Positions 23,781 through 27,350 of a DNA stretch of 64,000 nt are shown here, one piece after another (positions within the stretch are counted from its first letter, which is position 1; every line of letters starts with the position of its first letter). Below the pieces are notes generated by a model. The model was not told where the DNA came from. It saw nothing but the letters and a program-made list of their open reading frames with translations, and ran no database searches. Where the stretch lies: positions 868,001-932,000 of the forward strand of contig NW_026889761.1 of assembly GCF_033153115.1 (NCBI RefSeq), in the 5' to 3' direction. Made by a program: the position numbers and the translations under genes. This stretch comes from Saccostrea echinata (lineage: Eukaryota).

Positions 23781-25769
23781 GTCTTCAGTATCATTTGGAA
23801 CTCCAAAGTGAAAGGAATTATCTTTTTGTTAGTAAGGATTTACAGCTTTTTTTGATTTAATAATTAATATATCGTGTTTAAAGAATCATTATCTCAAGGG
23901 AAAAAATTATTCACAATATTCTAACTTATTATTATTAATATCTAACTTAGCTGTAAGGTAATTTACTCTGGGAAATAAATGTTGTTATAAGTATGTACCT
24001 ATGTAGAACGATGCTGAAAAATTAAATTTAAATACGGGCAATATTAAGATACTTCAAGCCATGCAACATTTTGTTGTTATTTTAAAGACGACAAATCGTT
24101 ACTGCATAGATAATTAACCAAGTCAATTAATTTACAAACTGTAGCAAAATTACAAAAATATTTATTTCTAACACGTTTTTTCCCAATTACTACACAAATA
24201 CATGATAGAACTAGTTCTGAGAATTATACATAGTACTGCGGATATCCTGTTAATTAATTATCTTTGGAGCGAATTGAACTGATAGTGTGGTTTAAAAAAA
24301 CATTTATTTAAAATGTAATACACTACACACTACAGGATTTTCTCTACTATATAGTCTATAGTTAGAGAGAAAAATTCTTCCTTCACCGTAACTTTATATG
24401 TTTGACATTCGATATGATTAACCCCCCCCCCCCCCCAATCGGTTACTTAGTCAGTATTTCCAGTATATTTTAATTAACATTTAAAAAGAAGTTAATGTGT
24501 TTTGTAGCACAAAAATTGCAGTCTCTAAACAAATGCATCTAAAAAAGTCATTGCACAATAGCAGTTCAAAAAATACACGTGTCTGCGGTGGTATTTTAAA
24601 TTGGCAGAGAGTATGTTTCAATTTCAAGTGTTTATACCCAATGTATTTTATTTACTTTTTTTTTTTTTTTTTTTTTAAGAAATGTTGGAATCAAATCTAG
24701 GAATGATAAAAAAAGTTAAAACTTGTTGGAAATACTAGCGCTTCGTCTTCGGTGTGACGAGACTTTCACACCTGCGCAGTGTCGAATGATTTTGATCGAC
24801 AGGACAAGCACGTGGACTTCGTGTGAACTTGAAGGAGGAACATTACAAGAAAAAAACGAGTATGACTGTCAAACAAATGGATTTGTTGATTAAAAAAGTT
24901 ACTTTTATTGCCTGATAAATCTAGAAAAAAATAAGTTTTTTTGTTTGATATAGGTACAAACATTTTATGAAGCATGAAAACTGAAAAGGGGGGGGGGCGA
25001 AAACTGAATATCTCTCTCTCTCCTCTCTCTCATTTGTCTGTTTAATAAAAACTATGACAGCATATATCAAGTTCTGAAATTTTAATCTAAAACAAATAAT
25101 ATGAATATGCCGCTTTGTATTATCTTGTCTGAGTAAAATCACGGGGAAATGTCTACAGGTAGATGTAGAAGTCTGCTCAATAAATCATCATAAAAAATAG
25201 AATTGACCCATAAATATATTATTGCTTTAAGATTCTGAAATACGAGTGTATTTATGCAAATACTTCCATGGACCTTTGTTAATTTTTTTTTCATTATTTT
25301 ACACGGAATCGCCTTGGCACGGAAATATATGAATGGATGTTACAATCGTTGTAATTCGTTCTATAATTCAGAAGTGTTCTCTTATTTGTAATGGTTATTT
25401 ATATAAAATAAGAATGGACATCTTTATTTTCAAACTAAAATAATTTTATCTTTTATACTACAGCTTTCGGTAACAATTACATGTACAATCTTTTACAGCG
25501 ATAAAAATCGCGTGATTACATGTAAAAGTTGAATATAAACTTCGTACAAGAAAGATACTTAATGTGCATTTCATCTTTCTTAAGAAAATTTTGTAGCATT
25601 TATTTATTTAATCATTGATTTGTTTATATAGTTATTATTTATTTATTTATTTATTTGGCATCTGACATTAGAATACAATAGAATGGTTTCAATGCAAGGA
25701 AAGATCAGAAGCATTTCGAAAAAATCGTTCATCTTGCGTTCACTATGGAATCCGGATAGGGCCATGCAG

Positions 25770-26098
25770 TTCACTATCGCATCATCGCACCATCGAGGTT
25801 TGGGTCGATAGTGCGATGACGCGATAATGCGATGACGATGAAGCGATGGTGCGATAACGATGAAGCGATGGTGCGATAGCGCGATGGCGATGATGCGATG
25901 GCACGACAATGCGATGACGATGATGCGATGGTACGATGAAGCGATAGCGCGATGACGCGATGGCACGATAGCGATGATGCGATGGTGCGATAGCGATGAT
26001 GCGATGGCGCGATAGTGATGACGCGATGCTATATCGTGTCATCGTTATTGCTTTATCGCACTATCGTCATCGTGTCATCGCACCATCGCTCTATCGAC
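25770..26098. repeat. GCGAT/ATCGC-rich subterminal array of the left TIR (mirrored at 32310-32640)
   Basis: Repeated GCGATG/GCGATA motifs; source of the spurious HRI/AIA ORFs. Confidence 0.9.
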
Positions 26099-26145
26099 TA
26101 GTACTTTCTATAACCGGATAACATTCCCAGCAGTCATTGCACAAC

Positions 26146-26783
26146 ATGGTGTTTGTTGACGAAAAGATAATAAAGAAATCATATTCCTTCTTTGGAGTAT
26201 TTATGGTGTGAAAATAAGGTAGGTATCATTAATTGTCATAAGTTATGATAATATAAGTACCTGTATAGGCTAATATTTTCTCTAAGAGTAATAAAGTTAC
26301 TATACATTAAATTTATAGTCTCATTCAAAGATTGTTTATGTGCGTGTTCTACTTGTATGTATATATCTGTTATTTAAGAAATAGTGATTGAAGTTAAAAT
26401 CTCCCATTTTAAGATATATTTTATGCATTATTTTTTAAAATAATTAAGCTGTAGACATTTGAAAAGGCGCATGACCAGACTTAATTTGAGAAGACGGAGA
26501 TCATACAATGTGGATATGGCAATAAGGGCTATTCAGGTAATATTGCTTGTGTTTTATTTCATCTTTCTTTTTTGATAGATTGATCAAATCTAGAAAAATC
26601 GTCAGTATCATCTACATTTTGATGATAGCTCATTATTTTTAGTTAACTCATACAAATGTTAAAAATTTCATATGATTTACATATATTCTACTCAAAGGAA
26701 GAAATGATGTTCAGTGGACAGATTCTTGGGTGTCGTTCGATGAAACGAAGACTTCTTCAGAAACATGGCATCTTTATAGGAAG
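26146..26783 (+). pseudogene. Inverted copy of transposase exons 1-3 inside the left TIR
   Basis: ATGGTGTTTGTTGACGAAAAG.., exon RHLKRRMTRLNLRRRRSYNVDMAIRAIQ, exon EEMMFSGQILGCRSMKRRLLQKHGIFIG; exon 1 has a deletion and a stop relative to the right copy. Confidence 0.8.
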
Positions 26784-27350
26784 GTATATTATCTTATTAT
26801 GATTAATAAACAGAATTCAGGTTTCTTGTTCAAAGTATTAATTTTATTTCTTTAATTCACCAGAATGCCAATTATACAGAATATTTGCTGACATTACTTT
26901 TATGAGCTTAAGGACATACACAACATAGTGTTGGAATTTTATTTTCTTATTCCCTTGTTGATTTAATTAAGAGTTCAATAATTGAAAAACCTTTGTACAA
27001 TTTAATGATGCCTGTAAATGCCGTTACCTCCTCTGAAGCAAATGTTGAGGAAATACCAGCTAACACTATATTTTTGTTATTTTTTTCTTTGAGAAAATAC
27101 AATGATTTTCATCATATTACATCTTTTGAAAACTCCTGGTAATGTATGCTGTTTTTTTTTTTTTGTCTTAAAACTCCTGATGAGACTCTATAATTTTAAA
27201 TTAGGAATATCCTGGAAAATAGTTGGTAAGGTACACGTAAATGCAAGTTGACCTTAAGAGGCAATAATGCTTTTCTTAGTCAAAATTTGCAACTTCTATA
27301 CTACTTGACATGTATTTCTAACTCATCTCTTTATTTTCCTTTTCTTTCAG

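Follow-up and report, generated by a model that had tools for sequence, protein, structure and literature searches.

The window analysed here is a 64,000-nucleotide stretch of a Saccostrea echinata contig (NW_026889761.1, positions 868,001 to 932,000). It holds a derived, non-autonomous DNA element of 6922 bp with the termini TATGG..CCATA (25744..32665). The flanking letters on the left (25738..25743) and on the right (32666..32671) both read GTTCAC, a target-site duplication (TSD) that had already been pointed out in the original prediction for this locus.

On the minus strand the element contains a nine-exon DDE transposase gene (28113..32263), with exons at 32263-32163, 31933-31846, 31684-31599, 31433-31263, 31102-31005, 30777-30639, 28977-28865, 28623-28463 and 28312-28113. 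All eight introns correspond to GT..AG joints in public contigs. Intron 6 carries a repeat insertion (30049..30388, approximate ends), which is absent from older copies of the family and marks its youngest clade. The plus strand holds the terminal exon of a HECT gene (27351..27591), which covers the C-lobe (Pfam PF00632, E 4e-9) and has a premature stop in the window copy, and an AATAAA/ATTAAA-type signal lies downstream of it at 27974. In the remnant of the last HECT intron lies a high-copy repeat (26908..27235, approximate ends) for which 935 first-look candidates were obtained, with partial matches at 74-80%.

The right arm (31563..32665, minus strand) consists of the native terminal inverted repeat (TIR, 32310-32665) and transposase exons 1-3, and it is the source of the left arm. 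On the left, the native TIR of 356 bp with its CGATG-type repeat array (25744..26099, plus strand) is followed by an added inverted copy of the transposase 5' end (26100..26819, plus strand, 720 bp), which stands in the place of about 14 kb of the HECT side. Within this copy, exon 1 (26146..26218) starts at the ATG, has its splice joint in RNA contigs and is shortened by a 28-nt deletion near 26165, so that its frame stops after 21 codons; exons 2 and 3 lie at 26449..26536 and 26698..26783, also on the plus strand. When the arms were aligned (25744-26819, 1076 nt, against 31563-32665, 1103 nt), 1050 of 1110 columns were identical and 41 contained gaps. Over 1069 aligned positions the arms differ by 19 substitutions, and there are a few indels besides, of which one is 28 nt long. 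The left arm takes in the first three transposase exons with the two introns between them and continues for about 36 nt into intron 3, where it ends at a rearrangement junction (26819..26820) that is common to all derived copies. It had been described in the original prediction as a mirror of 31563-32665 which includes these exons and breaks inside intron 3, and both the alignment and the splice joints agree with this. The spacer between the arms is 4.7 kb long and contains two 3' ends.

Family, full-length parents and derived copies

Judged from its termini, its 6-bp TSD and its PF24764 integrase-like core, the element fits the IS3EU/GingerRoot DNA transposons. These are defined by the termini TAYGG..CCRTA, a 6-bp TSD and an integrase-like DDE transposase in the available parts of PMC10045372, PMC12730594 and PMC6839031. 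As described there, they share with the window element the TA..TA termini, the 6-bp TSD, the PF24764 transposase and a second gene in opposite orientation. They differ from it in TIR length, since the described GingerRoot TIRs are 100-150 bp long whereas those of the window family are 356 bp in native form and 1.1-2.6 kb in derived form. The termini TATGG..CCATA are present in 25 of the 26 elements recovered here (one has an altered right tip), and a perfect 6-bp TSD was found at 24 of 26 loci (22 of 24 derived, both parents). The PF24764 match (E 4e-34) was obtained with P0002, a homolog 86-91% identical to the window transposase. HVDG lies at about residue 132; the criterion used was a first D 100-300 residues in, within an integrase-like DDE core without HHCC. 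The closest transposase protein matches, oyster proteins by their source names, came from Saccostrea echinata (95%) and Crassostrea virginica (91%).

Copies were searched for with the transposase interior, and all 35 candidates were scored, giving 27 elements; two of these are one duplicated locus, which leaves 26. Two are full-length parents, namely C1 (19.8 kb, TSD CGATTC) and C10 (22.2 kb, TSD TGTTCA). Both match the left end of the window element over bases 1-356 only, so the native TIR is 356 bp long and 720 bp have taken the place of about 14 kb on the HECT side. In both, a series of open exons ends in the same HECT terminal exon as in the derived copies. By sequence, the first exon of the HECT gene is probably located at base 386, just inside the TIR. 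The first HECT-domain exon of the parents gave a weak TOM1/HUWE1 match (best E 0.003), while no match to the middle exons of the ancestral gene was found in Pfam and PDB. Upstream HECT exons of a parent (L039:3179-3706 and 6452-6628) resemble a ubiquitin-like domain and a UIM-like motif, with no Pfam support. Repbase entries of animal IS3EU elements may include a HECT cargo. In the literature no IS3EU or GingerRoot element was found described with HECT, and the word HECT is absent from the main text, as far as available, of PMC10045372, PMC12730594 and PMC6839031.

These parents bear directly on several points of the original prediction. Its proposal that a copy of the right end had taken the place of the true left end was borne out, and the family alignment it recommended for measuring the native TIR gave 356 bp in both full-length copies, which speaks against exon-containing TIRs as the native form. 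The HECT 5' exons, which it had expected and not found at the left end, are absent from the window element and present in both parents. The 1.1-kb TIR that it named stands as an inverted duplication but not as a single locus, being a trait of a whole subfamily, and only the 720 bp inward of the outer 356 bp are new.

The other 24 elements are independent derived copies of 5.6-10.3 kb each with one junction in common. The 96 bp past the junction were found at 25 scored places, all of which belong to derived copies (two places are one duplicated locus, hence 24). The junction was read directly in 20 of the 24 loci, alignments cross it in three more, and C54 has a 1-kb insertion at the junction. 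The 216 bp past the junction match neither surviving parent, which hides the founding breakpoint and any microhomology at it. Core divergence from the window is 0.2-1.5% in ten other copies, about 3% in older copies and about 5% in the parents. The perfect TSDs at the derived loci accord with the earlier suggestion that the rearranged element transposed as a unit.

It is almost certain that the 1.1-kb TIR with its exons is neither native nor an assembly artefact. The long-arm form is indeed the commonest in the genome (24 of 26 loci), but the genome also contains parents whose TIRs measure 356 bp and whose HECT gene is complete, and all long-arm copies have one junction and an orphan HECT exon. 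An assembly artefact was ruled out by the post-junction sequence at 25 places, by distinct TSDs across 15 contigs and by a contig from an independent RNA run, made from another sample, that crosses the junction (26755-27056).

The transposase has a frameshift in exon 6 in the window, and it is broken in the window and in 22 of the 24 derived copies. All 11 copies within 1.5% of the window carry this frameshift ahead of the catalytic E, from which we infer that the young clade must have moved in trans. Stop-free frames were found in three of the 26 copies, namely the parent C1 (386 aa) and the derived copies C30c (in-frame indels) and C30b (compensating shifts); with two derived frames stop-free yet altered, some long-arm copies may be autonomous.

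Several copies are clustered, with three on C52 lying 46 and 70 bp apart (L016-L018) and two on C12 lying 263 bp apart (L014-L015), most of them with their own TSDs, which is likely the result of local hopping. Across all their flanks the copies on C62 and C24 share 99.6% identity, and they represent a duplicated region or a haplotig; their left arm contains a LINE-like reverse-transcriptase fragment inserted with a short duplication (L033:1-2672, L043:9136-9901).

Transcription of the left arm and its consequences

Five public runs contain part of the element; their type was guessed to be RNA, and their contigs are unstranded. Joints were counted in four of them (X1-X4), which represent two samples of one study. 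A GT..AG joint from the donor of left-arm exon 3 at 26783 to the HECT terminal exon at 27351 was present in three of the four runs (X1, X2 and X4), and one 1070-nt contig runs from the end of exon 1 through exons 2 and 3 into the HECT exon and the HECT 3' region. A junction from 26783 to a downstream HECT exon was just what the original prediction had suggested looking for. Contig depth at this joint was 60.7, 14.9, 0 and 9.6 in X1-X4, while the joint between exons 3 and 4 reached about 6 in X1 and X3, values that are not an expression ranking. Contigs with the HECT exon extend to 28098-28216 and end at different places; these ends, like the uncovered bins between the arms, were not counted as evidence on read-through. 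The HECT-spliced contigs of X1 and X2 are two letters from the window, so they originate in the young clade, and an X2 contig has the deletion allele. Spliced transposase RNA carries alleles of older copies other than the window copy, which may be derived or parental. Both arms are transcribed, and contigs that retain introns over the arm are present. A>G differences lie mostly in the high-copy repeat and were not taken as editing. Transposase transcripts without exon 8 were seen in X2 and X3 (window 28310-28863).

The fifth run, X5, is labelled as another organism. One of its contigs links exon 3, by way of the letters 'AA', to the transposase-stop region (L021:1562-2900), the shorter side of the joint being covered by 30 letters. 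This joint could fit a splice to the HECT acceptor in a copy from which the HECT exon and the two 3' UTRs, and so the terminators, have been deleted. A copy so deleted could read through and form a hairpin.

The products of the left arm were computed for the 24 derived copies, with the splice from exon 3 to the HECT exon forced for four re-extended ones. A frame of 95-97 aa from the ATG results in nine copies and one of 21 aa in nine, while the ATG is lost in two and the frame is otherwise broken in four. The window copy belongs to the 21-aa group owing to its 28-nt deletion, which is present in nine of the 11 youngest copies. A fusion protein of the helix-turn-helix (HTH) exons with HECT was rejected, as none of the 24 computed products reads into the HECT frame. 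The predicted splicing of HTH exons onto the HECT exon thus takes place, but not as an in-frame fusion, because a phase-2 donor is joined to a phase-1 acceptor. In a model of the transposase N-terminus (P0001, mean pLDDT 79.8), helices at 2-44 and 55-102 form two HTH-like units. According to this model the 95-aa form would contain the first three-helix HTH (2-44) complete and the second cut before its last helix. Foldseek returned no match to the model at E 0.001, and VIA-align gave generic HTH folds only (best Z 7.5). Among the substitutions in left-arm exons, 16 of 56 are synonymous against 24.5% expected under neutrality, and this count, which has little power at 1-3% divergence, detected no selection on the left-arm mini-ORF.

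Two readings would give the left arm a role in control of the family. According to one, the arm makes a 95-aa repressor of the TIRs that is restricted to DNA binding, as in the KP element, and the youngest clade escaped it by the 28-nt deletion. The ATG-started frame of 95-97 aa kept in nine of 24 left arms, the complete HTH at residues 2-44 of the model and the deletion carried by nine of the 11 youngest copies are consistent with it. The stop codon is in the last exon, for which nonsense-mediated decay is not expected. There is also a precedent in KP, whose 207-aa polypeptide binds P elements and represses them (PMC4938643, available parts). Against these points, the low-power synonymous count shows no sign of purifying selection, the HECT-spliced contigs of X1 and X2 come from a clade that mostly encodes 21 aa (the X2 contig with the deletion allele included), the bipartite DNA-binding region lacks part of one half, and the product itself is a prediction. 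We consider this repressor quite improbable. A wider form of the idea, which we regard as unlikely, is that the transposon builds its own mobile brake. A second promoter placed before the cargo terminal exon would yield a stable mRNA for a DNA-binding-only transposase, with its 3' end antisense to the transposase; the young clade would have lost the brake and expanded, and arm conversion, as in C42, could restore it. If true, this would be a eukaryotic re-invention of KP or of IS3 OrfA, and in animals that lack endo-siRNAs a rearrangement of the Mu killer type would have given rise to control at the protein level. No work combining the KP/OrfA parallel was found in the literature.

The other reading regards the locus as a mobile analogue of Mu killer, in which read-through gives a fold-back RNA and small RNAs silence the family. 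Its shape is similar to that of Mu killer, in which TIRA forms both ends and each side carries about 1.3 kb of mudrA (PMC3440606), and inverted duplications of Ac yield siRNAs (10.1101/2020.01.07.897926), as far as the available parts of these sources go. The transcription of both arms, the intron-retaining contigs, an X2 contig that overlaps transposase exon 9 by about 100 nt, a C1q-like gene directed into the element with its end 540 bp beyond the right TIR, and the X5 joint all point in the same direction. However, 24 derived loci stand against two parent loci, and with the young clade at 0.2-1.5% movement continued after the hairpin had arisen. Splicing takes the left transcript into a terminal exon that lies 4 kb before the right arm, the signal at 27974 being 3.6 kb before that arm, and a spliced read-through would pair over only about 320 nt in three pieces (275 coding nt and a short leader). 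Convergent transcription was already present in the parent, and a dedicated endo-siRNA pathway was not found for molluscs in the available parts of one survey (PMC12479628), although piRNAs may remain active there. The captured terminal exon may defuse the hairpin. The siRNA reading of the arms is weak, and we consider silencing of the family in this way very unlikely. A Mu-killer-like shape need not stop a transposon family in a mollusc.

The C1q-domain-like gene with a coiled-coil exon is a candidate whose identity was read from minus-strand ORFs at window 33205-34789.

Repeated arm extension and proposed origin

The arms of the subfamily vary in length, measuring about 1426 bp in three copies and 2642 bp in one, and the older junctions are kept inside the new arm. 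At the second junction there is a microhomology of 2 nt, TG. The arm tree took in 46 arms. A grouping of the left arms as one clade was rejected by the AU test (p 4e-5), which compared 19 with 19 arms, left out 8 arms of re-extended copies and 6 incomplete arms, and was done after earlier trees had been seen. A single origin without exchange predicts such a clade, so the arms exchange sequence while the junction stays unmoved. In agreement with such exchange, the left arm of C42 is of the right-arm type in its outer part, up to about base 600, where it lacks the 28-nt deletion, and of the left-arm type further in. C42 also sits in repeats like those around the window element.

We therefore favour, with good confidence, the interpretation that the window element is one copy of a non-autonomous IS3EU/GingerRoot subfamily, whose end was likely replaced by TIR-primed copying and which then spread, the long arm being best understood as a ratchet and not as a silencing device. 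A broken end would pair with the opposite TIR and copy inward over a variable distance. A template switch in repair, primed in the 356-bp TIR, likely put the inverted transposase 5' end in place of the HECT side. The shortened element would then spread, likely with transposase supplied in trans by intact copies, and further rounds of end copying would lengthen the arms. The left transcript would end at the HECT poly(A) signal and hence form no long hairpin, and its product, 21 aa here or the 95-aa HTH-only form in older copies, would be an unselected by-product.

The closest published case, considered like those below from the available parts of the cited papers, is found in sublineages of Drosophila mariner MITEs (Wallau et al. 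2014, PMC4161770). There too, one end was replaced by the transposase 5' end, giving long TIRs of single origin that were amplified past the parent. The corresponding signs in the window family are one common breakpoint, insertions with different flanks and a traceable full-length parent. It differs from the mariner sublineages in a size that stays at 6-9 kb, in keeping the whole, mostly broken transposase gene with introns, in the splicing of exons to the last exon of the cargo and in its nested rounds. Galileo foldback transposons (PMC4168063) likewise grow their TIRs by taking internal and transposase sequence, but they belong to the P superfamily and take the 3' end of the ORF, whereas the window family takes the 5' end with the promoter side.

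Mu killer (PMC3440606) and the Ac inverted duplications have both ends derived from the transposase end, an inverted duplication of more than 1 kb and a lost second gene. In the window family, too, the transposase 5' end is duplicated in inverted orientation, and both element ends come from one side. Mu killer and the Ac duplications each act as a single dominant silencer in plants that have siRNA pathways, while the window family is dispersed and amplifying, has a 4.7-kb spacer, and silencing by it is hypothetical. The KP element of Drosophila (PMC4938643) is also an abundant non-autonomous derivative that can encode the N-terminal part of the transposase, followed by a short tail of foreign origin. 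It arises by deletion, however, and its 207-aa product is a proven repressor, in contrast to the 95-aa product here, which is predicted only and lost in the youngest clade. Among P elements, non-autonomous copies outcompete full-length ones (PMC12393704).

End replacement that leads to long TIRs and successful non-autonomous lineages is thus known for mariner, and growth of TIRs into the ORF for Galileo. We found neither end replacement in IS3EU nor a splice onto a cargo terminal exon described in the literature, and Repbase consensus files could already contain the family. The family makes a clear case study; it is not a system of a new kind. How end-replaced derivatives with long TIRs originate was described as elusive by the authors of the mariner study (PMC4161770, available parts). 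Here the whole series is present in one genome, from the 356-bp parent through arms of 1.1, 1.4 and 2.6 kb to a polar conversion tract, which makes TIR-primed end copying directly testable.

Short MITE-like elements that consist almost only of the same TIR were observed at L025:9329-9605, L047:7744-8176, L016:223 and L024:3712, and C30c is inserted in one of them. The window element itself sits inside another element (23558-32850); that element is flanked by TA, its inverted ends begin with (C/T)AGTCCCTGAAACG, and it contains arrays of 11-bp repeats of the CGTTCA type. Other inverted-repeat pairs of 72-87% identity in the window (20297-21236; 21618-22153/42471-42991) are likely common oyster repeats.
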